Below, one piece after another: positions 4,427 through 47,167 of a stretch of DNA of 64,000 bases. Under the pieces are notes generated by a model. The model ran no database searches. It worked only from the letters and a program-made list of their open reading frames with translations, and had not been told where the DNA came from. Each line of letters starts with the position of its first letter. The stretch's first letter is position 1. Made by a program: the position numbers and the translations under genes. Source of the stretch: Bacteroides uniformis (GTDB lineage Bacteria > Bacillota_I > Bacilli_A > RFN20 > CAG-826); the NCBI GenBank assembly GCA_963641445.1, contig CAVIBR010000005.1:36430-100429 (forward strand), in the 5' to 3' direction.

Positions 4427-4452
4427 GAGAAAATCTGCTCTTTAAATTAAAG

Positions 4453-4486
4453 GAGAGAGGATGGAAAAACCCATCCTCTTTCTTGG
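4453..4486 (+). terminator. hairpin/attenuator between oppA and oppB
   Basis: Stem AGAGGATGG, loop aaaaac, stem CCATCCTCT, then a T-rich tail. This is the typical partial terminator that uncouples SBP expression from permease expression. Confidence 0.45.
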
Positions 4487-4562
4487 TTTATAAAAATCCT
4501 CATTGGCGGGATAAAATGTTTAATCCTTTAGAGATAAACAAGCCAATAGAAGGAGGATAATA

Positions 4563-5510
4563 ATGCTACGATACATCCTTAAAAGAATTGGGCTGATGAT
4601 ATTGACATTCGTCATCATTATGACGATGTGTTTCTTCCTCATCCGTCTATTGCCTGTCACCTCATGTAAATCAAATGATCAGACATGCATCTCAATCAAT
4701 GCCTGGCGTGAAGCGCTTGGCTATAATAAACCAATCATCGTGCAATATGTGCTTTACATAAAGCATATTTTCCAAGGTGATTTCGGCATTGGCTTTACAA
4801 TCTATGGTGGAAAAGAAGTTACTTCCGTCCTTATGGAAAAACTTCCAAGCACCATCTATTTAAACATTTGGGCTTCGGTTATCGCTATCCCAATCGGCTT
4901 AATACTTGGCGTCATCGCCGCTTTAAAAAAGAACAAATGGCAAGACCAACTTATTTCTATTCTTGTCATGCTCTTCATTTCCGTTCCTAGCTACGTATAT
5001 TGTTTCATCATTCAATACGTATTCTGCGCGAAACTGAAATGGTACCCGCTTATTGTTAATAGTGGTTATGACTATTGGAGCCCGGCATTCTTTCATTCAT
5101 ATTTCCCAGCCATGCTTTGCTTAATTATTGGCACAGTCGCAGGACTTACCCGTTATACTCGTGCTGAATTAACGGAGGTTCTTACAAGTGAATTCATGTT
5201 ACTTGCAAGAGCAAAAGGCTTAACAAGAGGCCAAGCAACCTGGAGACACGCTTTAAGAAATGCGATGGTTCCTATCTTCCCAATGATCTTAGGCGAATTC
5301 ATTTCTTGCTTAAGCGGTTCCCTCATCATCGAAAACTTCTTCGCTGTTCCTGGCGTTGGAGCGCTCTATCTTTCATCCATCAACAACCAAGACTATAACT
5401 TCTTTATGTTCTTGAGCATGTTCTATGTTGGAATCGGCTTAGCTGCCGCCTTAATTGTCGACCTATCTTATGGCTGGGTTGATCCACGTATCAGAATGGG
5501 GGCTAAATAA
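4563..5510 (+). CDS. oppB: oligopeptide ABC transporter permease OppB
   Basis: GGAGG SD. Polytopic membrane protein carrying the ABC permease EAA-like region (LARAKGLTRGQ...). Confidence 0.8.
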   Translation: MLRYILKRIGLMILTFVIIMTMCFFLIRLLPVTSCKSNDQTCISINAWREALGYNKPIIVQYVLYIKHIFQGDFGIGFTIYGGKEVTSVLMEKLPSTIYLNIWASVIAIPIGLILGVIAALKKNKWQDQLISILVMLFISVPSYVYCFIIQYVFCAKLKWYPLIVNSGYDYWSPAFFHSYFPAMLCLIIGTVAGLTRYTRAELTEVLTSEFMLLARAKGLTRGQATWRHALRNAMVPIFPMILGEFISCLSGSLIIENFFAVPGVGALYLSSINNQDYNFFMFLSMFYVGIGLAAALIVDLSYGWVDPRIRMGAK

Positions 5511-5512
5511 TT

Positions 5513-7006
5513 ATGGAAAACAAAGTTACAGATCCACGTTTCACCTTTGTTCAAGAAGATAAGAAATTATCCGATACGAAGATGGAGACAAAACGCATTG
5601 GCTTCTTTGCTGATGCCATGTATCGTTTTAGCCGTAATAAGGCTTCGATTGTTGCTGCATCCGTTCTCTTGATGATGATTCTATTCTCAATAATCACTCC
5701 TTTCTGCACAGGTTTTAGCGCCACAGAGAGCGATTCTTACTATACCAACTGTCTTCCTAAGGCTTTTGATGATGCAGGAGGATTCTGGGATGGCACAGAA
5801 ACTAGATCATTAGGTGAAGCGGAATATTATCTATATTCTGAAGCAGGCCGTGTTAGAGAGACGTATAAGTCATATGAGACTGGTGATGACTTCTCTGGAT
5901 TTACCACGAAATACGATGTTAGATATGACACCTATGTTATTGGCGCGGTAAACGATACTTTCACTCAAGAAGAACTTGATATCTATCTTGCGCACGATGC
6001 AAGCTGTGAAGAAAGCGAGAAAATCCTTCTTCCTTTGATTAGTACATCCTGGGCTACAAAATTAAATCAAAACGAATCCGCCGTTGAAAATGCTGTTAGA
6101 AATAATGCTAACTATGATTATTATTTCTATGCCAAAACCAAGAAACCAATCTTTGATGAAAATGGAGATCTTCAAAGAGCTTGGAAAAAGGATAAAGATG
6201 GCAATTACGTCTATTACGAAGCAACTGGTTTATCCGGCTCGGTATATAACGTCCGTATCAACTACGATAACAAATATCTATTTGAGCATGGAAAATATGC
6301 CAAATTCATTTTAGGAAGCGATGCTCAAGGACGTGATATTCTCACCCGTCTTAGCGTTGGCGGAAGATTCTCTCTTCTTTTCGCCTTTGGCGTATCTGCA
6401 ATCAACCTTGTTATCGGTTTGATATACGGTTCAATCGAAGGCTTCTATGGCGGAAAGACGGACTTAATCATGGAACGTATCGCAGAAATCCTATCTGAGG
6501 TTCCATTCATGGTCGTTATAGCTCTTTTAAAGAACTACAACGGTGTATATTTCTCGATATCTATCGTAGGAATGCTCTTTATTTCCTTCATCTTGACTGG
6601 ATGGCTTGGAACAGCCTCAACAGTTCGTATGCAATTCTATCGTTATAAGAAACAAGAATACGTTCTTGCTTCAAGGACCTTAGGTGCATCGGATGCAAGA
6701 CTTATCTTCAAACACATCCTTCCTAACTCTATCGGCACGATAGTTACCTCCTCCGTCTTAATGATTCCTGGCGTCATTTTCTCGGAATCTTCATTAAGCT
6801 ATCTTGGCATTATTAACTTTGATGCCGTTGGAAGCACATCAATCGGTACGATGCTCTCACAAGGACAAGCATCTTATACAAGCTATCCAAATAACATTCT
6901 TTGGCCAGCTATCTTCATTTCCCTTTTGATGATTTGCTTCAATATGTTCGGAAATGGACTTCGTGACGCCTTTAACCCGCAATTGAGAGGATCCGACAAT
7001 GTCTAA
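5513..7006 (+). CDS. oppC: oligopeptide ABC transporter permease OppC with a long N-terminal extracytoplasmic extension
   Basis: Starts 3 nt after oppB. The C-terminal half is an OppC-type permease. The N-terminal extension of about 250 aa is typical of Mollicutes OppC. Confidence 0.8.
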   Translation: MENKVTDPRFTFVQEDKKLSDTKMETKRIGFFADAMYRFSRNKASIVAASVLLMMILFSIITPFCTGFSATESDSYYTNCLPKAFDDAGGFWDGTETRSLGEAEYYLYSEAGRVRETYKSYETGDDFSGFTTKYDVRYDTYVIGAVNDTFTQEELDIYLAHDASCEESEKILLPLISTSWATKLNQNESAVENAVRNNANYDYYFYAKTKKPIFDENGDLQRAWKKDKDGNYVYYEATGLSGSVYNVRINYDNKYLFEHGKYAKFILGSDAQGRDILTRLSVGGRFSLLFAFGVSAINLVIGLIYGSIEGFYGGKTDLIMERIAEILSEVPFMVVIALLKNYNGVYFSISIVGMLFISFILTGWLGTASTVRMQFYRYKKQEYVLASRTLGASDARLIFKHILPNSIGTIVTSSVLMIPGVIFSESSLSYLGIINFDAVGSTSIGTMLSQGQASYTSYPNNILWPAIFISLLMICFNMFGNGLRDAFNPQLRGSDNV

Positions 7007-8726
7007 TAACAATGAAAACAAAGTATTATCCGTCAGAAACCTCCGTGTGAGTTTCTGGACAAATAACGGAACGGTCAAAGCTGTTCGTGGAGTTTCTTTC
7101 GATCTTTACCGCGGAAGAACTCTTGCAATAGTAGGAGAATCTGGCTCAGGAAAGAGCCAGACCTCCCGTGCAATAATGGGAATCTTAGCAGGAAATAAGA
7201 TCATAGAAGAAGGAGAAATCCTCTACGATGGCCGCGATATTCTCCGCTTAAAAGAAGAAGAACTTTGCAAGATCCGTGGCTCACGTATTGCCATGATCTT
7301 CCAAGATCCTATGTCTTCCCTTAACCCAATCATGAGATGCGGCAAACAAATCACAGAGGCCATGATGCTAAAAAAGAAAGCGACAATCTCTGAAAACAAG
7401 AAACGCGCCACAAAAATCAAACACGCCTTATTAAAAGGTGATCAAAGCAAAAAAGAAGAGCTTGAAAAAATCAGAAAAGGCGAAGAAGTAGATTTGTCTT
7501 TGTTAATCGATGCAGCAACTAAGACTGTTAGCGTTAATGAAGAAAATATCAAAAAAGCGGCAATTGATGCAAAAGAAACGTTAAATGCCCTCTTAAGCAA
7601 TCCCGCTTTCTCTTCAAACAACCTCAATCTTCTTAAGAAAGACCTTTTTCCATTAAAGAGAAAGGTTTCCTTAGTTGAGAACCATCTTGACGAGAAGAAA
7701 GATGACTTTGTCTTCACTTTCTTAGTCACTCTTGAATATTACATCAACGAGTACAATCTTGCTCTTAAACGCGAAAAAGCTGCCGCTAAGAAAGCAGCTA
7801 AAGACGCTAAAAAAGGCAAGAAAGAAAATACAGTAAAAGAAAGAGCCTTTGCTTCAGAAATCGATGTTTCTAAAGAAGCAGTCGTCTCTAGATGCAAAGC
7901 CTACGTTGAATCTTTCATCGCCCATCTTGAAAACGACTACATTGCCAAAGAAGCAAATATCGAAGATAAAGCAGAAAAACTTTTAGCCTTATATGTTTCT
8001 TCTTGCAAAAACGCTCTTACCAAGATCAGCAAGAAAGAACTTAAGAAAAAGGCAATCGAACTTTTAGGCGAGGTTGGTATCAAAGACCCAGAGAAGAGAA
8101 TCAATCAATATCCATTCGAATTCTCTGGTGGTATGAGACAGCGTATTGTTATTGCTATCGCCTTATCTAGTGACCCTGAAGTTCTTATTTGCGATGAACC
8201 TACAACCGCACTTGATGTTACAATCCAAGCTCAAATTTTGGATATGATTAACAAACTCAAAGAAAAGAGACATCTTTCCGTTATCTTCATCACCCATAAC
8301 CTTGGTGTTGTTGCTAATATGGCTGATGATATTGCTATCATGTATGCCGGAAAGATTGTTGAACAAGGAACAGCGGATGAAATCTTCTATCATCCAGCCC
8401 ATCCATATACATGGGCCTTGCTCTCATCTATGCCTGATTTAGAGACGAAAGAAAGACTTGATTCAATCCCTGGAACTCCTCCAAATATGATTCTCCCACC
8501 AAAAGGAGATGCCTTTGCTGCTAGAAATAAATATGCAATGGCAATAGATTTTGAGGAACAACCACCATTCTTTGAAATCAGTCCAACACACAAGGCTGCA
8601 ACCTGGCTATTAGATCCAAGAGCACCTCATGTTGATATGCCAAAATCCGTTAGCAACCGTATTGCTAGATTTGAAAAATTAAACAAAGAAGTAGAAGAAA
8701 AGGAGGCAAAGGAAAATGGAAAATAA
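6999..8726 (+). CDS. oppD: oligopeptide ABC transporter ATP-binding protein OppD with a Lys/Glu-rich insertion of about 230 aa
   Basis: Walker A GESGSGKS, ABC signature FSGGMRQR, Walker B LICDEPTTALD. A long charged insertion lies between Walker A and the signature. The start overlaps the oppC stop. Confidence 0.8.
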   Translation: MSNNNENKVLSVRNLRVSFWTNNGTVKAVRGVSFDLYRGRTLAIVGESGSGKSQTSRAIMGILAGNKIIEEGEILYDGRDILRLKEEELCKIRGSRIAMIFQDPMSSLNPIMRCGKQITEAMMLKKKATISENKKRATKIKHALLKGDQSKKEELEKIRKGEEVDLSLLIDAATKTVSVNEENIKKAAIDAKETLNALLSNPAFSSNNLNLLKKDLFPLKRKVSLVENHLDEKKDDFVFTFLVTLEYYINEYNLALKREKAAAKKAAKDAKKGKKENTVKERAFASEIDVSKEAVVSRCKAYVESFIAHLENDYIAKEANIEDKAEKLLALYVSSCKNALTKISKKELKKKAIELLGEVGIKDPEKRINQYPFEFSGGMRQRIVIAIALSSDPEVLICDEPTTALDVTIQAQILDMINKLKEKRHLSVIFITHNLGVVANMADDIAIMYAGKIVEQGTADEIFYHPAHPYTWALLSSMPDLETKERLDSIPGTPPNMILPPKGDAFAARNKYAMAIDFEEQPPFFEISPTHKAATWLLDPRAPHVDMPKSVSNRIARFEKLNKEVEEKEAKENGK

Positions 8727-10134
8727 TGAATCCAAAGCAACAGATATCGTCAAAGTTGATGAAAACGAAAATCTTATTCCTAACTCTCCTAAAAACGACG
8801 TAAAGGAAGATGCACCTATCATCCTTTCCGTCCGTCATCTTAAGCAATATTTCAAATTTGGCAAAGGTGAGTTCAAATACAACAAAGCTGTCCATGATGT
8901 CTCTTTCGACATTCATAAAGGAGAAGTCTTAGGCTTAGTTGGCGAATCTGGATGTGGCAAAACCACGACCGGAAGAAGCGTAATCAAGCTCTATGACATT
9001 ACTTCTGGCTCCGTCCATTTCGAAGGAACGAGAATTTCCGCTGGAACAAGATGGAATGAGAAAGAAATCAAATGGAAAAGCATCCGTTATAAGGAACAAA
9101 TCAAAAAACTTCAAGCGGAGAAAAAAGATGCCTTAGAAAGCATCACTCTTCATGATGATATTGATTTAGTTAAGGAAAAGGAAAGAATTTCCAAGGAATT
9201 TGATTCCCAAATCTTTGCTTTGAAAGCTGAATTATCAAAAATCATCAAAGAACAAAGAATGGAAATCCGTCGCGCTCATTATGACAATCGTCATTGCAAT
9301 GCTCCATTTGCTAAAAAAGCGCTTGAAAAAGCTAAAGCAGATCATCTTTCTAGAACTGCTGAACTTAAAGCCAATAAAGCAAAAGGAGGGGCTTTTTGCA
9401 AGGAATATTTGAAATATTTAGAAAGTTTGGTTATCGCTAGACACACCAAAATAACCTCTAAAATGCAAATGATTTTCCAAGATCCGATTGCCTCTCTTGA
9501 CCCAAGAATGACGGTTCGCGATATTATCGCCGAAGGTCTTAGAATTCAAGGCGTTCACGATAAGAAGATAATTGATGAAAAGGTCTCAAATGCTTTAATC
9601 CGTGTTGGCCTTCAACCAGAAATGGCTGAACGTTATCCGCATGAGTTCTCAGGTGGTCAAAGACAACGTATTGGCATTGCTAGAGCCCTTATTATGGAAC
9701 CGGATCTCCTTATTTGCGATGAGCCTGTCAGTGCTCTTGATGTTTCCATTCAAGCTCAGGTTATCAACCTTCTTAATGACCTTAAGAATGAATTGAACCT
9801 CTCTATTCTCTTTGTTGCCCATGACTTATCTGTCGTAAAATATTTCTGCGATAGGATTGCTGTTATGTATTTTGGCAATATTGTTGAAATTGCTTCAAGC
9901 GATGCCTTATTCGCTCATCCTCTCCATCCTTACACCAAATCATTGCTTAGCGCTATTCCTCTCCCAGATCCTCATTACGAGAAGAAGAGAAAGAGAATAA
10001 CCTATAATCCTCAGGAAGAACATTCTTACGGAGAAGAAAAACCAATCCTAAGAGAAGTAGAACCTGGACATATGGTGCTTTGCGATGAAAAAGAATTTGC
10101 TAAATACCAAGAAATAATCAAAGGAAATAATTAA
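8716..10134 (+). CDS. oppF: oligopeptide ABC transporter ATP-binding protein OppF with an internal insertion
   Basis: Walker A GESGCGKT, signature FSGGQRQR, Walker B LICDEPVSALD. An insertion sits between the N- and C-terminal lobes. The start overlaps the oppD end. Confidence 0.8.
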   Translation: MENNESKATDIVKVDENENLIPNSPKNDVKEDAPIILSVRHLKQYFKFGKGEFKYNKAVHDVSFDIHKGEVLGLVGESGCGKTTTGRSVIKLYDITSGSVHFEGTRISAGTRWNEKEIKWKSIRYKEQIKKLQAEKKDALESITLHDDIDLVKEKERISKEFDSQIFALKAELSKIIKEQRMEIRRAHYDNRHCNAPFAKKALEKAKADHLSRTAELKANKAKGGAFCKEYLKYLESLVIARHTKITSKMQMIFQDPIASLDPRMTVRDIIAEGLRIQGVHDKKIIDEKVSNALIRVGLQPEMAERYPHEFSGGQRQRIGIARALIMEPDLLICDEPVSALDVSIQAQVINLLNDLKNELNLSILFVAHDLSVVKYFCDRIAVMYFGNIVEIASSDALFAHPLHPYTKSLLSAIPLPDPHYEKKRKRITYNPQEEHSYGEEKPILREVEPGHMVLCDEKEFAKYQEIIKGNN

Positions 10135-11714: not shown

Positions 11715-11972
11715 TTAAAGAAGATTATTCTTCTCTAGATAATGTTTAGCATAAGAACATGATGCAGTAACTTTATAGCCTTTTTCCTTTGCAATCTCTA
11801 GAACCTTTTCAACGAGTTTCTTTGCTATTCCTTGTCCTTGGAGAGAGAGGGAGACAATCGTGCGGGTTATTTCGATAACGTTCTCTTTAACGAGAGGGAA
11901 ATCAATTTCTGCAAGGGCTTCTTCCTTTTCATTAACAAGAAGATATTTATCTTTAAACATTCTTTCTTGCAT
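11715..11972 (-). CDS. small GNAT-family N-acetyltransferase-like protein
   Basis: 85 aa containing the Q/RxxGxG/A-like motif LQGQGIAKKL. The start codon overlaps the stop of the upstream protease gene. Confidence 0.6.
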   Translation of the reverse strand: MQERMFKDKYLLVNEKEEALAEIDFPLVKENVIEITRTIVSLSLQGQGIAKKLVEKVLEIAKEKGYKVTASCSYAKHYLEKNNLL

Positions 11973-13720
11973 TAGTTATGCTCCGTGATCTTGATTGTTG
12001 CTTCGCTATCACTTAATGAGGTAACTTCAACTTTGTAATTAAGCTCATTTCCATTATTGAGCTTATAGGAATCAGCAAAATATTTAGAATATTTCTTTGA
12101 AACTTTTGAATCGATTAAAGAGAATTCATCTCCTTCATGGAATAAATCTTTATCGGTTGAATAAGTTGAAGTTGTGAAGGAAGTTCCTTGAGAAGAAATT
12201 AATGTTAACGCGTCAAATCCTTTTCCTTTGCATACATCAGTATCTCTATCACTTCCATTTGAGCAAGCAACTACAGGATAGTAGTTATTCCCATTGACAT
12301 TTCCTTTAGTTACATCGGAATCACTGAAATAAGAATAACTGGTTCTATTTCCTTTATAGGTAACCTTGGCTAAACGGTTATCAACGTGCCACATTCTAAC
12401 GCCAGACTTGCTATAGCCAGTCTCACCCATGTTAGGTCTTCCTGGGTAAAGCTTTTCGGAATCGAGTTGATTCAAGCCCGTTGGAGTGAATAATTCAATG
12501 ATGACATATTCATCAAAAGCCGTGCCATTCCAACCATTTGGATCAGCAATAACAATGCAATCACCAGTCTCTTCAAAAGAAGAGATTGTTACTTCAGCAG
12601 AACCGTGGACATAATGAGGGGTAACCCAGTTATATTGAAGCTTGTTGAAAGCATCGTGGTCTAAAATGTTATAGGCCATCATAATCTTTCCGCCTGTTAC
12701 TTCCTTTGTTGGATTATCATCGGAATTATAATAGTCATCCGCGCCAAGCATATGGCCAAATTCATGGATGAGGGTATGTGCATCTATACCAGTGTGGTTC
12801 GCCCTTGTTCCTGTGCCTTCATAGAAGAAATCTAGTGATGCCCAGAAATAGGAACATCCAACAGGAGAGTTTTCATTTGCATCAGGGTACTCGCCCGTAT
12901 ATGTATAATTGTCGTCATATGTATCCCAGAATCTATAGGCCCAGTAAGTGCTTGTATTATCGTAGTCTGGAGAATATGTTTCGGCATAAATCAAGATGAC
13001 GGAATCGATATAGCCATCGCCATCTGTATCAAATTTCTTGGTTGAATCGTTGCCGTTTGCCGCCTTATATGCTTTAATTGCTTTTTTCATGGCAACTGCA
13101 GCAGGTTTTCCTGTGCTAGAATCATCTTCGTCTTTTCCGTAGCTGTTATAGAAACTTTTTGCTTTAACGCCCATATCAACTGGATCTGAGTAAGTGAATT
13201 CAAGTTTTAATTTGCCATAGGATGATTTTTCATAGAATGAGCCAAGAGACTCCCAATAACTGGTTTGCTTAGCTGTTCCTCCACAAAGAGTCTTAATTTC
13301 TTGTAATTCGCTATTGGTGAATTTTTTATCGGTGAATGTGATAGGAAGGACTAAAACTGGTTGGGTCCCCGTGCTATAAGTGTTGTAATCGAGATCGTTT
13401 AAAGAAATGTTCTTGTTTGCGTCATAATTGAAATCAACGTTATCATCGGAATAATTAGTATTCCATTCACCATCGCTTCTAGAAGATGATGAAGAAGAAC
13501 TGCTAGAAGATGAACTTTCTGAAGAAGACGTGTTTGTAGATTCGGAAGTTGTCGAATCAGTTGAAACGCTTGAATCAGAAGATGTAGTTGAATCGGTTGA
13601 AGAATTAACATCGCTAGAAGAATCAACGTTACTAGAAGATGAATTAGGCGTAAAAAGGTCGCAAGAAGCAAGAGTGATCAAGCTTCCGAATGATAATGCA
13701 AATAATAATTGTTTTTTCAT
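11972..13720 (-). CDS. secreted zinc metalloprotease lipoprotein (HExxH; M6/InhA-like assignment is tentative) with a Ser/Thr-rich linker
   Basis: Signal peptide plus lipobox LITLASC. A Ser/Thr low-complexity tract of about 75 aa. HEFGHMLGADDYY zinc-binding motif. The likely start is MKKQLL at 13720 rather than the ORF-track 13780. Confidence 0.6.
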   Translation of the reverse strand: MKKQLLFALSFGSLITLASCDLFTPNSSSSNVDSSSDVNSSTDSTTSSDSSVSTDSTTSESTNTSSSESSSSSSSSSSSSRSDGEWNTNYSDDNVDFNYDANKNISLNDLDYNTYSTGTQPVLVLPITFTDKKFTNSELQEIKTLCGGTAKQTSYWESLGSFYEKSSYGKLKLEFTYSDPVDMGVKAKSFYNSYGKDEDDSSTGKPAAVAMKKAIKAYKAANGNDSTKKFDTDGDGYIDSVILIYAETYSPDYDNTSTYWAYRFWDTYDDNYTYTGEYPDANENSPVGCSYFWASLDFFYEGTGTRANHTGIDAHTLIHEFGHMLGADDYYNSDDNPTKEVTGGKIMMAYNILDHDAFNKLQYNWVTPHYVHGSAEVTISSFEETGDCIVIADPNGWNGTAFDEYVIIELFTPTGLNQLDSEKLYPGRPNMGETGYSKSGVRMWHVDNRLAKVTYKGNRTSYSYFSDSDVTKGNVNGNNYYPVVACSNGSDRDTDVCKGKGFDALTLISSQGTSFTTSTYSTDKDLFHEGDEFSLIDSKVSKKYSKYFADSYKLNNGNELNYKVEVTSLSDSEATIKITEHN

Positions 13721-13941
13721 GAAAAGGCTCCTATGTCGAACAGATGTTATTTTAATAAAAATAAAAGGAATAAAAAACAAAAATGATTAATTTTAGTTTC
13801 TTGAATATAACTTGATAATATATTAGGTAACAAATACAATCGATTAAATCTAAATATTAAAGTGATTAAAGTTAAATTTTCCTATTCTTTTTAATGCTAA
13901 AAATGCACCTTTTTGCTAAAATTTCATCTAGAGGAGAATTT

Positions 13942-32540: not shown

Positions 32541-33215
32541 ATGAAACAAATTGGTATGATTATCGCTGTGGAGTTCACTCCATTTAAGGAAGCATATGGC
32601 GAGGCAAATGAAGTTATTAAAGAAAAGGGATATGAGGTCTCAATTTATAAAAAGGATAACTATTCTCTTTATGTCATTCCTTCAGGAGAAGGAGAAGTTG
32701 CAGCGGCAATTTGCACCCAATATCTAATTGACAAATTTGGCGTTGAAATGATTTTGAACTATGGCGTTGTTGGAGGATTATCCGATAAGCTTGGACATGC
32801 TCTAACATGCGTTGTTAAAGAAGTAGTGGATTACCGTTTTGATACGTCGGCAATAGATAAGATTCCTGTTGGAAAACATCCAACTCTCCCAATCAATATT
32901 CCTACAAACGAATTCCTTAGAAAAAAAGCTCTTGAAGCAGTTCCTTCTTTAATAGAAGTAAGATGTGCTTCAGGCGATCGTTTTGTTGATCTTCCAGAGG
33001 AGAAAAAAGAAATCCACGGGACTTTCGCTGCGGATATTTGCGAAATGGAGGCGGCAGGAATCCTTCTTACATGTCTTAGAAATGATGTTCCTTCACTCTT
33101 TATAAAAGTTATCGCAGACACCCTTTTTGGCGGAGCAAACGAATACTCTGACAAATCACAAAAAGCAGCAAGAGAATGTGTCAAAATCCTTGAACACATA
33201 ATGAATCAACTATAA
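32541..33215 (+). CDS. nucleoside phosphorylase-family protein (MTA/SAH nucleosidase-like, PNP_UDP_1)
   Basis: An N-terminal Glu in IGMIIAVEF, plus the CEMEAAGI motif, parallel the MTAN catalytic residues. Confidence 0.6.
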   Translation: MKQIGMIIAVEFTPFKEAYGEANEVIKEKGYEVSIYKKDNYSLYVIPSGEGEVAAAICTQYLIDKFGVEMILNYGVVGGLSDKLGHALTCVVKEVVDYRFDTSAIDKIPVGKHPTLPINIPTNEFLRKKALEAVPSLIEVRCASGDRFVDLPEEKKEIHGTFAADICEMEAAGILLTCLRNDVPSLFIKVIADTLFGGANEYSDKSQKAARECVKILEHIMNQL

Positions 33216-33322
33216 AAAATTTACCGATATTGTTGTTAGAAATCTCTAAATAAAAATTTATCCGATTATCGCTTATTTATTATTTTTAATCGTTATAAAT
33301 GAGTTAATTTTTCCTAACCTAA

Positions 33323-33343
33323 AATAGACTTTGTAAGTCTATT
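33323..33343. promoter_or_regulatory. perfect 9-bp inverted repeat AATAGACTT-tgt-AAGTCTATT, 50 nt upstream of the large Fe-S flavoprotein gene
   Basis: Read directly from the sequence. It could be an operator, or a weak hairpin terminator for the upstream gene. Confidence 0.3.
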
Positions 33344-33395
33344 ATTGGTTTTCTTATTGCAATAAAATTAAGCATATTTTCATAGGAGAAAAAAT

Positions 33396-36176
33396 ATGGC
33401 AAGTAAGAAACATCAATGGACTGAAGGCGAAAAAGCCTGTATGGAGAAGTATTTCGCATACAAAAAAGAACATCCCGAACCAAGAAAAAATCTCATTAAA
33501 CTCGTTAAACATATCAACATGCTTAACCCTGTCGCGGATGAATATTCTTGGGAATATATCTTCTTTGATCGCTTATTAAACGATGAACAAATTGATTTCT
33601 TGCTCAAGATCAAACTTCGTAAGGAATATACGATTGATGAATTAGCAAAAATCTATGGAAAAGACGTGGTTACAACAGCAAAATTCATTAATGAATTAGT
33701 TTGCATCGGTATCCTTGAATATTGCACGGAAAAAGGCAGCAATATCGATAAAGTTAAAATGCCAGTTTTTGCTCCTGGGGGAATGGAAAATACTGCTTAT
33801 ACCGCTTCAACGCTTGAACATTCCCCAGAAATAGCTCCTGCCTTCCTTAACTATATTCTTGATCTTCAAAAGCTTATTGCTTGTTTTGTTCCACATGGCA
33901 ACGCCTTAATGAGAACAATCCCTGTTGAAAAATCTATCGCCAATTTAAGTAAGAAAGTCTCTACTGATGAAGTCTCTCATTGGCTTGATTGGGCCGAGAA
34001 AGAAGGCTGCATTGCAGTTGGGTATTGCGAATGCCGTCGCTTAAGAAGAATGGTTGGAGAAGGGACTGCTGACTTAGAAGGAGAATGGTGTATCTCTTTA
34101 GGAAAACTTGCATCTTCCTTAGTTAGAGCAGGAAAACATCGTCAAATCAGCCGTGAAGAAGCGGAGAAAATACTCAAAGAAGCAGAGAATAAGGGATACG
34201 TGCATCAATTATCGAATGTTGATGGCAAAGATTATTCATGCTTTATCTGTAACTGCCCATGGGATACTTGCATGGCTTTAAAGACATCTTGGTATACATC
34301 TTCGCCGAATCTTTCTTCATCAAATTTCCGTGCGAAAGTAGATCCAGCTAAGTGCGTTGCTTGTGGAGGGTGCGTTGAAGTATGTCCGCAAAATGCCGTT
34401 CGCTTAGGCGAGAAACTTTGCACTAAGAAACATATAAGAATCAAGCCAAAATCAGTTCCTGCCGATCATCTTTTCTTCTTTGGAGAAAAGGGCGATAAAT
34501 GGAATGGAAATTCTTTCTTAACGGATAGGGAAAACGTTTATCGTGAGACTGGAACATCTCCATGTAAGGTTGCTTGCCCTGCCCACATTGCCGTTCAAGG
34601 CTATTTGAAGTTAGCAAACGAAGGCAGATATGATGAAGCACTTGCCCTCATTAAAAAGGAAAATCCATTCCCAGCTGTTTGTGGATCCGTTTGCCATAAA
34701 TATTGCGAGCTTCAATGCACTAGAGGAAAGCTTGATGCATCAGTAGCCATTGATGAAGTAAAACGTTTCCTTGCTTTACGCGATATCAATGCAAAAACCC
34801 GTTATATTCCTGAAAAGTATTATACATATGGTCATAAGATTGCCATTATTGGTGCAGGTCCAGCTGGTTTAAGCGCGGCATATTATCTTGCAATATTAGG
34901 CCATGATGTTACGGTTTTTGATAAAAACAAACTTCCTGGTGGCATGATGAGATACGGTATGCCTTCTTTCCGTTTGGAAAAAGATCTCGTTGATGCGGAA
35001 ATAAAAGTAATTGAAGAACTTGGCGTTAAGTTCAAACAAGGCGTTGAAATAGGAAAAGATGTTACCTTAGCCGATCTCCGTAAAGAAGGATTCAAAGCCT
35101 TCTATTTAGCAATCGGTTGCCAAGGCGGAAGAGCCTTAGGAATCGAAGGAGAAAACAACGAAAACGTCATTTCCGGTGTATCTTTCCTCCATAAATATAA
35201 CGAAGAAGGATACCCATTATCTGGAAAAGTCGTAGTCGTTGGTGGAGGCAATGTTGCAATGGATGTTGCAAGAGCTGCTAAACGTGCTGGAGGAGAGGTA
35301 AGCATGTATTGCCTTGAATCTAGAGAAGAAATGCCTGCAAGCAAAGATGAAATCGAAGATGCGTTAAATGAAGGAATAGTCATTAACAACGGATGGGGAC
35401 CAAAAGTTATTCTCGGAGAGAATGGCAAAGTAAATAAAATCGTCTTCAAGAAATGCCTTTCAGTTAAAGACAAAGATGGGAAATTCAATCCTTCATATGA
35501 TGAAAATCAAACGATTGAAGCTGATGCGACATATATCTTAACTGCCATAGGCCAAAGTGTTGTCCTTAACGATCTTCTCAAAGATAGCAAAGTTGAAACT
35601 AGAAGAGGAAACTTCATCCTTGCTGATTCTTGGACCTATCAAACAAAAGAACCTGATATTTTCGTTGGCGGAGACGTTTATTCCGGACCACGTTTTGCAA
35701 TCGATGCTATAGCTGCGGGCAAAGAAGCGGCAGATTCTCTCCATCGTTACGTCCATGAAGGACATTCTCTAACCTTAGGACGTGTAAAACGTGATAATTT
35801 CGTTTCAATTGATAAAGACAATCTTGCTGATATAAAAGATTACGACCACACTCCAAGACAATATGTGAATCTCGATAAGAACAAACTAAATTCTAATCGT
35901 GATCCACGCCTTCCATTCACCGAAGAAGATGTCAAGAAAGAAACTTCACGTTGCCTATCTTGTGGAAGAGCGATCGTTGATCAAGGAATTTGCATTGGCT
36001 GCGGTCTTTGCACGACTCGTTGTCGTTTTGATGCCATCCATATGGAAAGTATGGATAAACCAAAATGGGGTCCAGATTATGAGCATCTAGTCGGAGCCGT
36101 CTTAAAAGAAGAAGGCGCTCGTATTGGAAGAAGCATCGCCCGCCCATTTAAAGGCAAGAAGGACCTCAATAAATAA
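33396..36176 (+). CDS. large Fe-S flavoprotein oxidoreductase: a novel Cys-rich N-terminal domain, 4Fe-4S ferredoxin motifs, and a GltD-like NAD(P)H/FAD domain
   Basis: 926 aa. CVACGGCVEVCPQNAV and CIGCGLCTTRC ferredoxin motifs. SPCKVACPAHI...CGSVCHKYCE (GltD/DPD N-terminal Fe-S domain). IAIIGAGPAGLSAAYYLA Rossmann motif. The N-terminal 330 aa carry CxC/CxxCxC clusters with no recognised family. Confidence 0.7.
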   Translation: MASKKHQWTEGEKACMEKYFAYKKEHPEPRKNLIKLVKHINMLNPVADEYSWEYIFFDRLLNDEQIDFLLKIKLRKEYTIDELAKIYGKDVVTTAKFINELVCIGILEYCTEKGSNIDKVKMPVFAPGGMENTAYTASTLEHSPEIAPAFLNYILDLQKLIACFVPHGNALMRTIPVEKSIANLSKKVSTDEVSHWLDWAEKEGCIAVGYCECRRLRRMVGEGTADLEGEWCISLGKLASSLVRAGKHRQISREEAEKILKEAENKGYVHQLSNVDGKDYSCFICNCPWDTCMALKTSWYTSSPNLSSSNFRAKVDPAKCVACGGCVEVCPQNAVRLGEKLCTKKHIRIKPKSVPADHLFFFGEKGDKWNGNSFLTDRENVYRETGTSPCKVACPAHIAVQGYLKLANEGRYDEALALIKKENPFPAVCGSVCHKYCELQCTRGKLDASVAIDEVKRFLALRDINAKTRYIPEKYYTYGHKIAIIGAGPAGLSAAYYLAILGHDVTVFDKNKLPGGMMRYGMPSFRLEKDLVDAEIKVIEELGVKFKQGVEIGKDVTLADLRKEGFKAFYLAIGCQGGRALGIEGENNENVISGVSFLHKYNEEGYPLSGKVVVVGGGNVAMDVARAAKRAGGEVSMYCLESREEMPASKDEIEDALNEGIVINNGWGPKVILGENGKVNKIVFKKCLSVKDKDGKFNPSYDENQTIEADATYILTAIGQSVVLNDLLKDSKVETRRGNFILADSWTYQTKEPDIFVGGDVYSGPRFAIDAIAAGKEAADSLHRYVHEGHSLTLGRVKRDNFVSIDKDNLADIKDYDHTPRQYVNLDKNKLNSNRDPRLPFTEEDVKKETSRCLSCGRAIVDQGICIGCGLCTTRCRFDAIHMESMDKPKWGPDYEHLVGAVLKEEGARIGRSIARPFKGKKDLNK

Positions 36177-36517
36177 TGCATGAGATAGGAACTCTTTCTA
36201 GGGCTATCGAAGAAATAGAAAAAGTGGCTTTAGAAAAGAAAATCGACAATATCAAAGTAGTCACTTTCCAAATAGGTGAAGCGAGTGGCTACATCACAAA
36301 ATTCTTTACTGATTATTTTCCGATTATGACGCAAGATAAACCTCTTTTTGCCAATTGCGAGTTAAAGATGATTCAAACAAAGGCTGAAGCGATTTGCCTA
36401 AATTGCCATACCTTATATAACGTCATGAAGCAAAAAGGAGTTTGTCCTCGTTGTCAATCAAGAGAAAAGGAAATGATTGGCGGTCAGGAATTTCTAATAA
36501 AAGAACTAATTTATTAA
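36176..36517 (+). CDS. hypA: HypA-like nickel/zinc metallochaperone
   Basis: 113 aa. MHE N-terminus, IGEASG, and the zinc knuckle CLNC-x13-CPRC. The start overlaps the upstream stop (TAATG). Confidence 0.65.
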   Translation: MHEIGTLSRAIEEIEKVALEKKIDNIKVVTFQIGEASGYITKFFTDYFPIMTQDKPLFANCELKMIQTKAEAICLNCHTLYNVMKQKGVCPRCQSREKEMIGGQEFLIKELIY

Positions 36518-36553
36518 ATTCAAGCGGGTTTTATAGGTGATTTTGAGATTTTT

Positions 36554-36578
36554 AAAAGGCATCGTCATGATGCCTTTT
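36554..36578. terminator. bidirectional terminator between hypA-like (+) and prs (-)
   Basis: AAAAGGCATC-gtcat-GATGCCTTTT palindromic hairpin with A and T runs on both sides. Confidence 0.55.
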
Positions 36579-36595
36579 AACATATGTATATTGTT

Positions 36596-37522
36596 TTATT
36601 TTGCGATTTCACGCTTAATTGCATCAGCAATAAGTGGAGCAATGCTAATAGTGGAAATAGATGGATTTTTGTTTTCGATTGAATCAGATACCATCAAGCA
36701 AGTAACGCCTGCATTCTTTAATTTCTCAAGAGCATTTCCGGAGAAGACGCCATGAGTGGCTGCAACCCAACAACGTTTTGCGCCATCTTCAAGAAGCTTA
36801 GCTGCAACAGCGGACATTGTTCCTGCCGTATCGATAATATCATCGACTAAGATACAAAGTTTATTTTGAACATCGCCATGCAAACCTAAGACTTTTGCCT
36901 TATTTGGAACTGGACGATGCTTATCTGCATAAGCAAATGATGAGCCAGGAAGTAAAGCAGCAAATGCTTGAGCTCTTGCAACTCCTCCATGGTCTGGTGA
37001 AACGACGGTGACATCTTTCAATGCAACGTTTGCTTCAGCTAATCTCTCTTTGAAATTTTCAGCAAAAAGTTCCATCGCGGAAAGGTTTTCTGTCTCAATG
37101 CCAAATTTAGGCATGACCTTCAAAGAATGCAAATCACATGTATATAACTTATCTGCACCAGCTGCCTTGATTAAATCAGAGACAAGCAATGCTGAGACTG
37201 GATCTCCTTCGTCAATGACTCTGTCCTGCCTTGCATATCCATAATAAGGAATAAAGACTGTTATTCTTCCAGCGTCCGCGTTCCTTAAGGCATTTAAGAA
37301 GACAAGCAATTCCATTAAACGCTCATTTGCAGGAGAGAAAGTGGAATGAATGATGAAGATGTCCTTCTGCTTAACTGGAAGCATAGGCTTAGAAAAAACT
37401 TCGCCATCAGCAAAGTGCATGACTTTAGCCTTCTCACAGTTTATCCCTAGTTGATTAGCAACATTGTTCGCTAAGGTAGGGTTTGAGCCAAGTGAGAAGA
37501 GCAATATTGAATTTAGATCCAT
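36596..37522 (-). CDS. prs: ribose-phosphate pyrophosphokinase
   Basis: PRPP synthetase motifs: FIPYYGYARQDR, and DLHS near the PRPP-binding loop (ILVDDIIDTAGT). Confidence 0.9.
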   Translation of the reverse strand: MDLNSILLFSLGSNPTLANNVANQLGINCEKAKVMHFADGEVFSKPMLPVKQKDIFIIHSTFSPANERLMELLVFLNALRNADAGRITVFIPYYGYARQDRVIDEGDPVSALLVSDLIKAAGADKLYTCDLHSLKVMPKFGIETENLSAMELFAENFKERLAEANVALKDVTVVSPDHGGVARAQAFAALLPGSSFAYADKHRPVPNKAKVLGLHGDVQNKLCILVDDIIDTAGTMSAVAAKLLEDGAKRCWVAATHGVFSGNALEKLKNAGVTCLMVSDSIENKNPSISTISIAPLIADAIKREIAK

Positions 37523-43106: not shown

Positions 43107-43457
43107 TTATTGAATCTTTGTAAGCTGTTCGTACATCTCAGGTATCCATCTTTTTGTTGTGTCATAAACTATAGTCATGTTAACAACACCATAATCATGA
43201 ACAATTCTGTTTCTCATGCCTTTGATAGCTACCCAAGAAATTTCACGATGTTTTTCTTTGAATTCATCGGATAGACGATTATTGTTCTCTGCAATTTGTA
43301 TAATACGGAACATGATAGAATCAACTAGTAGTTCATTACTTTCGATTTCTCTTTTGCTTTTGCCTGCGGTGTGTTCAATTACAAAACGCAAGTCCGATAT
43401 GATTTTATCAACATAGTATTCATCATTTTTCGTGTTATCCATATATTTTAACTCCAT
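43107..43457 (-). CDS. hepT: HepT-family HEPN toxin (DUF86; type VII TA system)
   Basis: 116 aa with a C-terminal RNRIVHDY (Rx4HxY) motif. It overlaps the upstream NTase gene by 23 nt. Confidence 0.75.
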   Translation of the reverse strand: MELKYMDNTKNDEYYVDKIISDLRFVIEHTAGKSKREIESNELLVDSIMFRIIQIAENNNRLSDEFKEKHREISWVAIKGMRNRIVHDYGVVNMTIVYDTTKRWIPEMYEQLTKIQ

Positions 43458-43905
43458 CTTTTAATATTTCATTTACAAGTGTGGGGTTATTATCTAGTTG
43501 AGTTAAATCCAGCAAATCAACTTTCTTTTTTAACCGTTCCCTTAATGTTTCTATGATTTCGAAGAACTTCATACCATCAACTGGCATTGCAATAAGTAAG
43601 TCAACATCGCTTTTTTCCGTCGCTTTCCCTTTTGCATAAGAACCAAACAAATAGCAATAATCTATTTGATAATTTTTGAATATTTCGTTACAAACTTCTT
43701 TAATTTGATCGATTGTTAAAATGCCATGGTCCTCATCAATCAGACTTGCCTTCTTTAATGTATCTACAACGTATTTATATTTTAATGAAGATTCTTTAAT
43801 TTTACCGGATTCATAGTTTACGTATGTTCTTCTAGTAACGCCTAAAAGGTTTGCTGCCTCTTCCTGCGTAAGTTTATTTTCTAATCGAATATCTCTTAAA
43901 TTCAT
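43435..43905 (-). CDS. mntA: MntA-family minimal nucleotidyltransferase antitoxin fused to an N-terminal XRE-type HTH
   Basis: The N-terminal LTQEEAANLLGVTRRTYVNYESG is an XRE HTH. LFGSYAKGKATEKSDVDLL is the GSx9-10DxD motif of a Pol-beta NTase. Confidence 0.75.
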   Translation of the reverse strand: MNLRDIRLENKLTQEEAANLLGVTRRTYVNYESGKIKESSLKYKYVVDTLKKASLIDEDHGILTIDQIKEVCNEIFKNYQIDYCYLFGSYAKGKATEKSDVDLLIAMPVDGMKFFEIIETLRERLKKKVDLLDLTQLDNNPTLVNEILKDGVKIYG

Positions 43906-46156: not shown

Positions 46157-47167
46157 ATGATGGTCCCAGTAACTTTTGTGCAAATGACACAAACAATATA
46201 TTCGTTAAAAACAATTTCGGATATGAAGAAAGAAGAATATCCTTCTCTTTTTCGCATCTCTTCAAAAATAGCTATCGTCCAATCGGTTAAGGGGAACAAT
46301 GAAATTGAAGGTATTGTAGCCACTGATAAGCACATTAAAGAAATCGTAAATGAATCTGCTGCTCCACTTAACCATAACGAAATGGAGAACGCAGGATACT
46401 GCGATGCACTTTCTATGATTCATCAAAAACATAAAAATATCAATTTGGACGAATCTTCAATTTTAAATTTGCACAAAATTCTCTTATCTAAGACCAATCT
46501 TCCTTATGGAGGGATTTATAAAACACATGATAACGTTATTAGAGAAACTTACTTTGATGACACTTCAAGAATCCGTTTGTCTCCAGTTTCAACAAAAGAT
46601 ACAAAAGAAGCAATGACTCAATTGATATTAGCTTATTAAGAAGCAAGAGATGATAGCGGTATTAATAAACTCCTTTTGGTTCCTTGTTTCATCTTAGATT
46701 TTTTATGTATCCATCCATTTAGAGATGGGAATGGCAGAATGTCTAGATTATTAACTTTGCTTCTTTTATATAAAGCGGATTTTGACATTTCAAAATATGT
46801 ATCATTTGAAGAGCAAATCAATAAAATGAAAGACAAATACTATGAAGATCTCAAAAAGAGTTCCGAATGGTGGCATGAGAATAAAAACGACTATATTCCT
46901 TTCATAGAAGATTTTCTCTACACTCTCTATCTTTGCTATAAAGGACTAGATAAACATTTCCTTACCCTTTCATCAAAGAAAGTAAGCAAAAAAAAGAGTG
47001 AAGCAAATAATTCTTTCTTCGTTCATTCCGATTTCAAAAAAAGAAATACAAGATTTGCTTCCGGATATAGCAATTGGAACAATAGAAATGGTTTTAAGCG
47101 AAATGTTAAAGGAAGGGGAGATCAGAAAATCGGTACAACAAAGAGTAGTAGATATCTAAAAATCTGA
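46157..47167 (+). pseudogene. Fic-family (AMPylase-type) gene interrupted by a single in-frame TAA at 46637..46639
   Basis: The ORF-track entries 46157..46639 and 46676..47167 share one frame. The N-terminal part has the Fic N-terminal region (NNEIEGI). The C-terminal part has the catalytic motif HPFRDGNGRMSRLL. Confidence 0.7.

Follow-up and report, generated by a model that had tools for sequence, protein, structure and literature searches.

The closest known systems to the locus described here are the isr operons (Acetobacterium wieringae ISORED-2, strains Y and N) and the homologues grouped as 'clade 9' (PMC10134865; Jin et al. 2025, PMC12509576). IsrA is a 901-aa FAD/NADH/Fe-S oxidoreductase and a putative isoprene reductase (Kronen et al. 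2023, PMC10134865). Its N-terminal ~270 aa contain no known domain and hold a Cys6 site that includes two CxC motifs, C180/C182 and C254/C256, which lie 74 residues apart, and its ferredoxin-type motifs are found at residues 289-300 and 848-877 (PMC10134865). Isoprene strongly induces IsrA together with the HypB, the ferredoxin and one of the two HypA proteins of its operon in an organism without a [NiFe]-hydrogenase, and IsrA was the only isoprene-induced redox protein in the reducing culture (PMC10134865). Of 988 IsrA homologues, 73% have HypA no more than 5 genes away, at a mean distance of 1.05 genes, and the neighbourhood frequencies are 0.73 for HypA, 0.56 for HypB and 0.21 for TetR (PMC10134865). 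Kronen et al. proposed that IsrA is a nickel client with the Cys6 'cluster V' as the candidate nickel site, and later papers restate this proposal; the same authors modelled the site as an Fe/S cluster, likened it to P-type and double-cubane clusters and also compared it to the A-cluster of acetyl-CoA synthase (ACS) (PMC10134865). In Pelotomaculum with isoprene, hypA was up 373-fold and hypB 585-fold. Even at 47-49% identity to IsrA, Acetobacterium homologues fail to reduce isoprene (PMC10134865), so the substrate of IsrA is not transferable by homology.

A flavoprotein gene followed by a gene for a HypA-family protein is present in the 64-kb stretch of DNA analysed here (henceforth referred to as the window). 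The first-pass annotation of the window had presented this pair as a candidate novel system with an undescribed client relationship. Neither claim stands, as Kronen et al. had already described the same architecture and HypA pairing as IsrA and had proposed IsrA as a nickel client (PMC10134865). Because the pairing with HypA was proposed for IsrA in 2023, the window adds a further member of the IsrA kind, minimal in that no hypB is adjacent, and not a new system.

Results

The flavoprotein and hypA genes overlap

The features of the locus are collected in Table 1. The two open reading frames were recovered with exactly the coordinates and lengths given in the first-pass annotation, and the proposed coupling rests on a 1-nt overlap in the sequence TAATG, where the last A of the flavoprotein stop codon TAA (36174-36176) is the first base of the hypA ATG (36176-36178). 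Both genes have a readable Shine-Dalgarno sequence; that of hypA lies within the 3' end of the flavoprotein gene, 12 nt from the hypA ATG. On balance we consider it probable, with some reservation, that the two genes form one functional unit, in which an IsrA-type ('clade 9') oxidoreductase is encoded with its own HypA-family metallochaperone.

Table 1. Features of the flavoprotein-hypA locus (positions are those of the window; residue numbers are those of the encoded protein).
Feature	Position	Strand	Basis
PNP_UDP_1 phosphorylase gene, immediate neighbour	32541-33215	+	Pfam scan
AGGAGA, Shine-Dalgarno of the flavoprotein gene, ATG 6 nt on	33384..33389	+	Direct sequence reading
IsrA-type NAD(P)H/FAD/multi-[4Fe-4S] oxidoreductase gene, 926 aa	33396..36176	+	ORF; Pfam and NCBIfam domains; architecture as for IsrA in PMC10134865
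Winged-helix-like sub-domain, about aa 50-125	33543..33770	+	Within the N-terminal domain
Cys-rich sub-domain, about aa 165-300, with invariant C211, C213, C232, H270, C285, C287, C292	33888..34295	+	Candidate Cys6(+His) metal site
First ferredoxin-type CxxCxxCxxxCP motif (C320, C323, C326, C330)	34335..34400	+	Pfam Fer4, aa 314-335
Fer4_20 (DPD domain II / GltD-NfnB type, two [4Fe-4S]); C390, C394, C429, C433, C437, C441	34554..34775	+	Pfam PF14691, 63.2 bits
Pyr_redox_2, FAD/NAD(P)H module, aa 481-775	34836..35720	+	Pfam PF07992, 102.4 bits
C-terminal ferredoxin-type Cys cluster (C853, C856, C866, C869, C872, C876)	35952..36050	+	Weak Fer4_21 match; Cys conservation
GAAGGA, Shine-Dalgarno of hypA, within the 3' end of the flavoprotein gene	36158..36163	+	Direct sequence reading
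HypA-family metallochaperone gene, 113 aa	36176..36517	+	ORF; Pfam PF01155
Met1-His2-Glu3 codons, N-terminal nickel-binding motif of HypA proteins	36176..36184	+	MHEI invariant in orthologue alignment
Zinc-site codons C74-x2-C77-x12-C90-x2-C93	36395..36454	+	Four Cys invariant; alignment to H. pylori HypA
PRPP synthetase gene, immediate neighbour	36596-37522	-	Pfam scan

The flavoprotein has the architecture of IsrA

The 926-aa protein contains the PF14691 and PF07992 core of the IsrA-type 'clade 9' proteins and shares with IsrA a length of about 900 aa and the domain order of N-domain, ferredoxin motif, Fer4_20, FAD/NAD(P)H module and C-terminal ferredoxin motif. The ferredoxin-type motifs of IsrA have counterparts in C320/323/326/330 and in C853-C876; the four Cys of the former are 100% conserved in an alignment of relatives, as are the six Cys of the Fer4_20 match (aa 387-460), and the C853-C876 pattern is 99-100% conserved, although the Fer4_21 match at aa 859-885 is weak (18 bits against a cut-off of 35). 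The sequence IAIIGAGPAGLSAAYYLA begins at residue 481, in Pyr_redox_2. Both CxC motifs and the first ferredoxin motif are displaced from those of IsrA by the same offset of +31, and, as in the IsrA family, the gene is followed immediately by hypA, which overlaps its stop codon, with no hydrogenase genes nearby; TetR and HypB neighbours occur in some relatives of both. The adjacent HypB/CobW gene found with 56% of IsrA homologues is absent from the ORFs scanned in the 64-kb window, but this feature is not universal in the family. Compared with the isr operon, the window has one HypA and lacks HypB, the second HypA and the separate N-domain/ferredoxin protein, and it comes from a low-GC Firmicute of the gut or rumen, whereas the hosts of IsrA are acetogens. 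The assignment to the IsrA type thus appears justified by architecture, motif spacing and neighbourhood, with IsrA compared through its published description: neither the name nor the accession of IsrA (VUZ27132.1) occurred among the clusters of ten ~900-aa representatives, and no match named Acetobacterium emerged when homologues were sought from the Eubacteriaceae-labelled relative L024. Full-length homologues that are ~60% identical to the window protein are common in Firmicutes.

The central part of the protein resembles the NfnB/GltD/DPD module described by NCBIfam NF009410 (PRK12771), which matched aa 383-902 with 457.2 bits, below its cut-off of 516. The window protein differs from that module in its 380-aa N-terminal extension (winged helix, Cys6 domain and ferredoxin motif), in its additional C-terminal ferredoxin motif and in the absence of a partner NfnA or GltB gene beside it. 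We considered whether it could be a redox- or metal-sensing DNA-binding regulator that acts through its winged helix, or an Nfn/GltD-like electron-transfer subunit without a catalytic site of its own, as its GltD/NfnB-like core might suggest. Either role is highly improbable. The winged-helix match accounts for only 70-100 of the 926 residues of an enzyme with multiple cofactors and separate TetR or GntR regulators adjoin the operon in several contexts, whereas an electron-transfer subunit would be hard to reconcile with scores below the curated cut-offs of all GltD, Nfn and DPD-type NCBIfam models (for example 264 against 472 for TIGR01316 and 304 against 835 for the YgfK model TIGR03315). 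Against both roles stand the induction by isoprene of IsrA alone among the redox proteins of the reducing culture (PMC10134865), and the invariant Cys6/His site with its dedicated chaperone, which indicates a catalytic metal centre. A regulatory role conferred by the winged-helix module was rejected on this evidence, and the IsrA-type oxidoreductase remains our preferred reading of the 926-aa protein.

The N-terminal domain contains an invariant Cys6/His site

As for IsrA, the N-terminal region has no assigned family: no Pfam family scored above threshold in residues 1 to ~310, where the sole match was the winged-helix family HVO_A0114 at 19.2 bits, under its cut-off of 27.6. A search for solved folds resembling the Cys-rich domain found no structural relative, in agreement with the novelty that the first-pass annotation had ascribed to this region. 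The conspicuous Cys clusters are CECRRLRRM at residue 211 and CFICNCPWDTC at 282-292, and the CxC motifs within them, 211/213 and 285/287, are separated by 74 residues exactly as in IsrA. Six Cys (C211, C213, C232, C285, C287 and C292) and His270 are invariant among relatives down to 26% identity and constitute a candidate metal site equivalent to the 'cluster V' of IsrA. In the ACS A-cluster (Ni-Ni-[4Fe-4S]), the distal Ni is coordinated by a Cys-X-Cys tripeptide. By analogy only, Cys-X-Cys beside an Fe-S cluster could provide a thiolate or N2S2 nickel site in the window protein; comparison of sequence and fold gave no support for a relationship of the Cys-rich domain to ACS, CODH, the large subunit of [NiFe]-hydrogenase or double-cubane proteins.

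Short standalone proteins composed of the N-domain and a single Fer4 (P0136, P0145 and P0154) are similar to the ferredoxin encoded separately in the isr operon. We give them little weight because other short matches (P0137 and P0140) are clearly fragments or chimeras.

The 113-aa protein is a divergent HypA-family member

Membership of the HypA family, which had been read from the MHE N-terminus and the IGEASG motif (residues 33-38), was borne out by the profile search, in which residues 1-111 of 113 aligned with positions 1-110 of 112 of Pfam PF01155 at 79.6 bits (gathering score 28.9). The zinc site had been given as CLNC-x13-CPRC; both CxxC motifs are present, but the spacer between them is 12 residues and not 13. 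MHEI is invariant in 33 of 33 distinct orthologues, as are all four zinc-site Cys in the same alignment (C74, C77, C90 and C93), and C74-LN-C77 and C90-PR-C93 align with the zinc-site Cys of H. pylori HypA. The window protein thus shares with the H. pylori protein and canonical HypA/HybF its length class, the Met-His-Glu N-terminus, the four-Cys CxxC...CxxC zinc site and a score above the PF01155 threshold. Judged from sequence, it is nevertheless a member of a divergent subfamily. It is 25% identical to H. pylori HypA (PDB 2KDX, 6G81) over a full-length alignment (E 2e-5), its scores fall short of all NCBIfam HypA equivalog cut-offs (57.5 against 88.1 for TIGR00100, 48.8 against 112 for NF001839 and 40.0 against 113 for NF009046), and its subfamily does not conserve the His residues that flank the zinc site in H. 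pylori HypA. Unlike canonical HypA, the subfamily has its own conserved motifs, GE.sGy, FF.kYFP and C.SR.K..lGGq.F, and the window protein is encoded with an Fe-S flavoprotein, whereas canonical HypA is encoded with hypB-F, hydrogenase or urease.

This divergence, seen in the missed equivalog cut-offs and in the low identity to H. pylori HypA, raises the question of whether the protein handles nickel at all, or is instead a zinc-ribbon accessory subunit, an assembly factor for a Cys6 Fe-S cluster (for example an unusual or double-cubane cluster), or a carrier of Zn, Co or Fe. The absence of hypB and nickel-uptake genes from the window and the Fe/S 'cluster V' model of Kronen et al., with its P-type and double-cubane resemblance (PMC10134865), would also be consistent with such a role. 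However, Met-His-Glu, the set of Ni(II) ligands that defines HypA (established knowledge; PMC10134865), is retained without exception in the orthologues, HypB/CobW GTPases directly follow HypA in other branches, HypB being the usual nickel-delivery partner of HypA, and a dedicated HypA is not normally needed for generic Fe-S assembly. We therefore regard a role without nickel as rather unlikely, and the preferred function of the protein remains that of a nickel chaperone.

The flavoprotein-HypA pairing is conserved across unrelated contexts

Conservation of the neighbourhood, which had been suggested as a check on the pairing, was strongly positive. Among the 47 related loci with enough downstream sequence, a HypA gene lay directly 3' of the flavoprotein gene in 44, across 21 unrelated flanking contexts and with spacings from an 8-nt overlap to a 26-nt gap. 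Start and stop codons also overlap in the window's own clade, and the adjacency is kept in the distant branches P0299, P0161 and P0284, whose N-domains are 28-32% identical to that of the window protein; family members without an adjacent HypA are found at L027 and L048/49. In two branches (L024; L051/52) the operon extends into two HypB/CobW GTPase genes, and in several contexts a TetR gene lies divergently upstream of the operon or a TetR or GntR regulator adjoins it. The HypB/CobW and TetR neighbours agree with the published neighbourhood statistics (PMC10134865). The pairing of the flavoprotein with HypA is not due to chance, and the pair is tightly conserved and occurs very commonly among Erysipelotrichaceae, Lachnospiraceae and Clostridia of the rumen and gut.

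As the first-pass annotation had noted, genes for hydrogenase, urease, HypB or CODH are absent from the window: a greedy gene call, which retained the longer of overlapping ORFs, gave 56 further ORFs with a minimum length of 70 aa, and none of these matched hydrogenase, urease, HypB-F, CooS or CooC in a Pfam scan. The same scan of ORFs revealed no nickel transporter in the 64 kb, where Rfam likewise found no NiCo or other riboswitch. As the sequence in view is 64 kb of the genome, HypA could in principle serve a conventional client from another part of that genome, either a [NiFe]-hydrogenase or a urease, in which case its position beside the flavoprotein gene would have no functional meaning. 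We consider this very unlikely, given an adjacency that persists through 21 unrelated contexts and down to 28% N-domain identity, the start/stop overlap within the clade, the lack of any hydrogenase among the called neighbours of the 53 loci where Pfam annotation was available, and the example of A. wieringae ISORED-2, which has the same IsrA-HypA pairing yet no [NiFe]-hydrogenase or hypCDEF (PMC10134865). The flavoprotein encoded with HypA is thus its favoured client.

Upstream of the pair, a perfect 9-bp inverted repeat at 33323-33343 was considered as an operator and dropped, because it is not conserved in close relatives and probably serves to terminate the preceding gene. A promoter and terminator scan of 32900-36900 gave fewer matches than shuffled controls.

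Discussion

The pair of genes, its domains, the invariant residues and the conserved adjacency are observations; for the cofactor content, nickel delivery and substrate class of the enzyme we infer a scheme. By homology to NfnB/GltD and following the published IsrA model, NAD(P)H would reduce the FAD at aa 481-775, from which electrons would pass to the two predicted [4Fe-4S] clusters of the Fer4_20 domain and then to two further [4Fe-4S] clusters, in a ferredoxin domain that aa 320-330 and aa 866-876 together make up. The electrons would end at a putative metal site in the N-terminal domain formed by the CxC motifs 211/213 and 285/287, C232, C292 and probably His270. The co-translated HypA would use its N-terminal Met-His-Glu to bind a metal, most likely Ni(II), for delivery to the Cys-rich site during maturation of the flavoprotein, in an organism in which hypB is not adjacent to the pair. 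The mature enzyme might reduce a small hydrophobic unsaturated substrate, for example an unactivated conjugated C=C, by speculative analogy to the conversion of isoprene to methylbutene; the substrate in the window organism is probably not isoprene.

A wider reading, for which we see some possibility but which we put forward only tentatively, is that the IsrA-type family, the window protein included, is a new class of nickel enzyme, with a Ni-containing Cys6/His centre in a fold without a solved counterpart, that catalyses NAD(P)H-dependent hydrogenation of unactivated C=C bonds, and that, as the two-gene form in the window would show, HypA suffices for its maturation where no HypB GTPase is adjacent. 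Since the pair is so common in rumen and gut bacteria of the groups named above, diet-derived dienes (for example terpenes or conjugated fatty acids) could be substrates and the enzyme a component so far missing from the picture of biohydrogenation in gut and rumen. The core idea of a nickel-dependent IsrA is that of Kronen et al. 2023; what is new relative to that work is the minimal two-gene pairing, seen among gut and rumen Firmicutes in 21 independent genomic contexts, the invariance of His270 along with the six Cys, and the finding of a Cys-rich domain without a solved structural relative. If the family is truly nickel-dependent, it would represent a nickel enzyme of a new kind and would give HypA a new client outside hydrogenase and urease, and the identity of the Cys6/His site and the reduction of unactivated C=C bonds would become directly testable questions. 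A relative is carried by the cultured isolate Erysipelotrichaceae bacterium NK3D112 (locus L023), which could serve as an experimental system.

A flavoprotein gene coupled to a hypA gene

Over the 64 kb, 58 open reading frames (ORFs) of at least 70 aa were called; the flavoprotein and HypA pair was scanned first and the other 56 were compared with Pfam afterwards. Both ORFs of the pair start and end exactly where the first-pass annotation had placed them, and the start/stop coupling it described was confirmed: at the TAATG junction the last base of the flavoprotein stop codon (TAA) is the first base of the hypA ATG. By inspection, ribosome-binding sites precede both genes (AGGAGA 5' of the flavoprotein gene; GAAGGA 12 nt 5' of the hypA ATG). 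On one side of the pair is a gene for a PNP_UDP_1 phosphorylase and on the other a convergent one for PRPP synthetase, and the housekeeping genes around the pair (Opp-type ABC transporter, AdhE, YfhO, RNase J, Maf, deformylase) are typical of a low-GC Firmicute. A promoter and terminator scan around the pair was uninformative, and Rfam detected no riboswitch in the window, its sole match being one tRNA. At 33323-33343, 53 nt 5' of the flavoprotein ATG, there is a perfect inverted repeat of 9 bp (AATAGACTT-tgt-AAGTCTATT) with a T-rich stretch after it. Close relatives do not share this repeat, so it more probably terminates transcription of the upstream gene than serves as an operator.

Genes of the pair and domains of the flavoprotein
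Feature	Position	Strand or protein	Description or source
Flavoprotein gene	33396-36176	+	926-aa ORF
hypA gene	36176-36517	+	113-aa ORF
Ferredoxin motif Fer4	aa 314-335	flavoprotein	Pfam
Fer4_20	aa 387-460	flavoprotein	Pfam
FAD/NAD(P)H module Pyr_redox_2	aa 481-775	flavoprotein	Pfam
C-terminal ferredoxin-type Cys pattern	aa 853-876	flavoprotein	

The proposed HypA identity of the smaller product was borne out by an end-to-end match to the Pfam HypA profile (PF01155; 79.6 bits, threshold 28.9). It has the MHE start, IGEASG and a four-Cys site, C74xxC77-x12-C90xxC93, whose spacer counts 12 residues and not the 13 given earlier, and it aligns full length with H. pylori HypA (PDB 6G81/2KDX; E 2e-5, 25% identity). 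Because it passes the Pfam threshold yet scores below every NCBIfam HypA equivalog cut-off (e.g. TIGR00100, 57.5 versus 88.1), the protein is, as judged from sequence, a HypA-family member of a divergent subfamily. An orthologue alignment showed that the MHE motif and the zinc site are invariant across this subfamily. As had been stated for hydrogenase genes, none encoding a hydrogenase, urease, HypB-F, CooS/CooC or recognisable nickel transporter was found with Pfam among the window ORFs of at least 70 aa.

By its architecture, the flavoprotein is a probable IsrA-family member

The top NCBIfam match of the flavoprotein, NF009410/PRK12771 (aa 383-902), falls below its cut-off (457 versus 516), and residues 1 to ~310 match no family, their sole hit being a sub-threshold winged-helix. 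The same kind of architecture has been described for IsrA (VUZ27132.1; LNN31_08025 in CP087994), the putative isoprene reductase of Acetobacterium wieringae ISORED-2: 901 aa with PF14691 and PF07992, a first ~270 aa without predicted domain, two further ferredoxin-type motifs (289-300 and 848-877), and a 'cluster V' modelled on six topologically close Cys that include two CxC motifs, C180/C182 and C254/C256 (PMC10134865). In the window protein, residues 211/213 and 285/287 form the CxC motifs, 74 residues apart as in IsrA, and the first ferredoxin motif (C320-C330) is shifted by +31 against IsrA 289-300, as the CxC motifs are. By every feature tested, with IsrA compared by its published description, the window flavoprotein would thus belong to the IsrA family. 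Further Cys at aa 342, 687, 853 and 856 (nt 34419-34421, 35454-35456 and 35952-35963) are 94-100% conserved in the family; as neither the four canonical [4Fe-4S] clusters nor the six-Cys site obviously requires them, they might take part in an additional metal site or in disulfides.

In ISORED-2, isoprene strongly induces four proteins of a five-gene operon, namely IsrA, HypB, a 4Fe-4S ferredoxin and one of two HypA, whereas the second HypA shows no significant rise in abundance; the genome lacks [NiFe]-hydrogenase and hypCDEF (PMC10134865). A neighbourhood network of 988 homologues gave co-occurrences of 0.73 for HypA (average distance 1.05 genes), 0.56 for HypB and 0.21 for TetR, and Kronen et al. 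(2023, mSystems) named IsrA as the likely nickel target, with cluster V as a possible nickel site (PMC10134865). Isoprene also induces hypA 373-fold and hypB 585-fold in Pelotomaculum (two 2026 preprints), and a 2025 genome announcement reports a 'putative diene reductase cluster' that includes three nickel chaperones. Papers after 2023 still term IsrA putative, and we found no biochemical or structural characterisation of the family in the literature. The earlier suggestion that the chaperone serves the adjacent flavoprotein is reasonable but not new, and the client relationship it called undescribed was proposed in 2023 for this same protein family (PMC10134865). What the window holds is a further member, as a minimal two-gene version, of a kind already known though biochemically uncharacterised.

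The flavoprotein-HypA pairing is conserved across unrelated contexts

Full-length homologues of ~60% identity, labelled in databases only as 'FAD-dependent oxidoreductase', are abundant in Erysipelotrichaceae/Solobacterium, Lachnospiraceae, Clostridia and Oscillospiraceae. We sampled 52 related loci (L numbers below) and the window, and considered the 47 flavoprotein genes for which 400 nt or more of 3' sequence was available. A HypA ORF lies 3' of the flavoprotein gene in 44 of the 47, at spacings from an 8-nt overlap to a 26-nt gap, and by flank similarity these 44 loci represent 21 unrelated genomic contexts; the neighbourhood is thus conserved, and the pairing is more than chance. The exceptions were L027, with a terminator hairpin 3' of the gene, and L048/L049. 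The pairing is kept in distant branches (homologues P0299, P0161 and P0284) at an N-domain identity of only 28-32% to that of the window, and is carried by a cultured isolate, Erysipelotrichaceae bacterium NK3D112 (L023; genome JNJQ01). In two branches (L024; L051/52) two HypB/CobW GTPase genes extend the operon, and a TetR or GntR gene is often divergent, upstream of the pair. That HypA instead serves a hydrogenase or urease encoded elsewhere in the genome is very improbable, as both the conservation of the pair over 21 contexts and the precedent of a hydrogenase-free Acetobacterium argue strongly against it.

Two paralogous IsrA-type genes can occur near each other in one genome: in tandem in L026 (414-3161 and 4232-7003), with HypA after the first copy, and convergent in L021 (2358-5111, +; 5928-8789, -), with a single HypA between them. 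At L001 (coordinates 3319-5789), L002 and L004 a divergent TetR and a fatty-acid hydratase gene (MCRA, PF06100) precede the pair, which hints weakly at unsaturated fatty acids as possible substrates of some family members. Flavoprotein genes whose products are 83-98% identical to that of the window (L009-L015, L032, L036, L043) all come from 'cleanbin' MAG assemblies labelled Sodaliphilus, Alistipes communis, Faecalibacterium prausnitzii, Prevotella sp., Hallerella sp., Bacteroidales or Lachnospiraceae; these labels look unreliable, because near-identical low-GC loci cannot be common to such different phyla, and gene content suggests an Erysipelotrichales-like Firmicute as the true source.

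The N-terminal domain holds an invariant Cys/His set

An AlphaFold2 model of the N-terminal domain (N-domain), built from a 95-sequence alignment, was confident (pLDDT 90.6, pTM 0.88). Foldseek returned no PDB match for it at E <= 1e-3, and its fold showed no likeness to any metal domain from ACS, CODH, hydrogenase or nitrogenase. Across the 95 sequences, down to 26% identity, the invariant residues are G105, P176, C211, C213, C232, G267, H270, C285, C287 and C292. The six Cys and His270 are 100% conserved in 72 full-length homologues, in which the Cys of the remaining cluster motifs are 99-100% conserved. Used alone as query, the N-domain matched 779 cluster representatives at E <= 1e-3, most with the domain at the N-terminus of ~900-aa proteins and some being ~390-440-aa proteins with a single Fer4 motif, which resemble the separate ferredoxin of the isr operon. 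The domain had been called novel: it indeed belongs to no curated family and has no solved fold, but it is widespread and was flagged as unknown already in 2023. That the flavoprotein is itself a regulator or a plain electron-transfer subunit we regard as most improbable, given its invariant Cys6/His site, its dedicated chaperone and the regulators encoded separately in sister loci.

A probable route for electrons and nickel

By homology with NfnB/GltD, and following the IsrA model in the literature, NAD(P)H would reduce FAD, from which electrons would pass to two [4Fe-4S] clusters in Fer4_20, on to two more such clusters in the split ferredoxin domain and finally to the Cys6/His site. In acetyl-CoA synthase the distal nickel is held by a Cys-X-Cys tripeptide, so the two invariant CxC motifs are, by analogy, a plausible nickel site. 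HypA probably delivers Ni(II) to the Cys6/His site, to judge from the invariance of its MHE motif and zinc site, the HypB genes of sister operons and the published expression data. A HypA-like protein acting as an accessory factor or subunit that does not handle nickel is favoured by the equivalog score under the cut-off and by the absence of hypB and nickel uptake genes from view in the window; we consider it unlikely, if the most serious alternative to nickel delivery. One may speculate that the substrate is a small unsaturated hydrophobic molecule; isoprene itself is unlikely, because Acetobacterium homologues 47-49% identical to IsrA leave it unreduced (PMC10134865).

Operon structure, domain order, invariant ligand-type residues and conserved adjacency are established here. 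New relative to 2023 are the retention of the pair in 21 independent contexts, the addition of His270 to the six invariant Cys, a Cys-rich domain with no solved structural relative, and the pair's presence in cultured isolate NK3D112; the underlying question of real interest is a possible new class of nickel enzyme.

Other genes of the window

An Opp/Dpp/Nik-family ABC transporter operon (1820-10134, +) encodes two permeases, two oligo_HPY ATPases and an SBP_bac_5 lipoprotein that is unusually large at 868 aa; as NikABCDE is part of this superfamily, a nickel importer is conceivable by analogy. A 602-aa predicted lipoprotein (11972-13780, -) with a Ser/Thr-rich linker and an HExxH motif (LIHEFGHMLG) matches no Pfam family at E <= 1e-5 and is possibly an uncharacterised zinc metalloprotease. 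At 43107-43905 (-), a HepT-like RNase (116 aa) overlaps an MNT/Polbeta nucleotidyltransferase with an N-terminal HTH, forming a HepT/MNT-type toxin-antitoxin pair. Adjoining ORFs of 160 and 163 aa (46157-47167, +), the second of which opens with only the C-terminal end of Fic (profile positions 67-93 of 93), resemble a Fic/DOC gene that a frameshift or stop codon has divided in two. Finally, a 518-aa CrtI/amine-oxidase-type flavoprotein (PF01593; 53171-54727, -), unrelated to the IsrA-type pair, adjoins an ArsC/Spx-family gene and is a candidate for another C=C or amine oxidoreductase.
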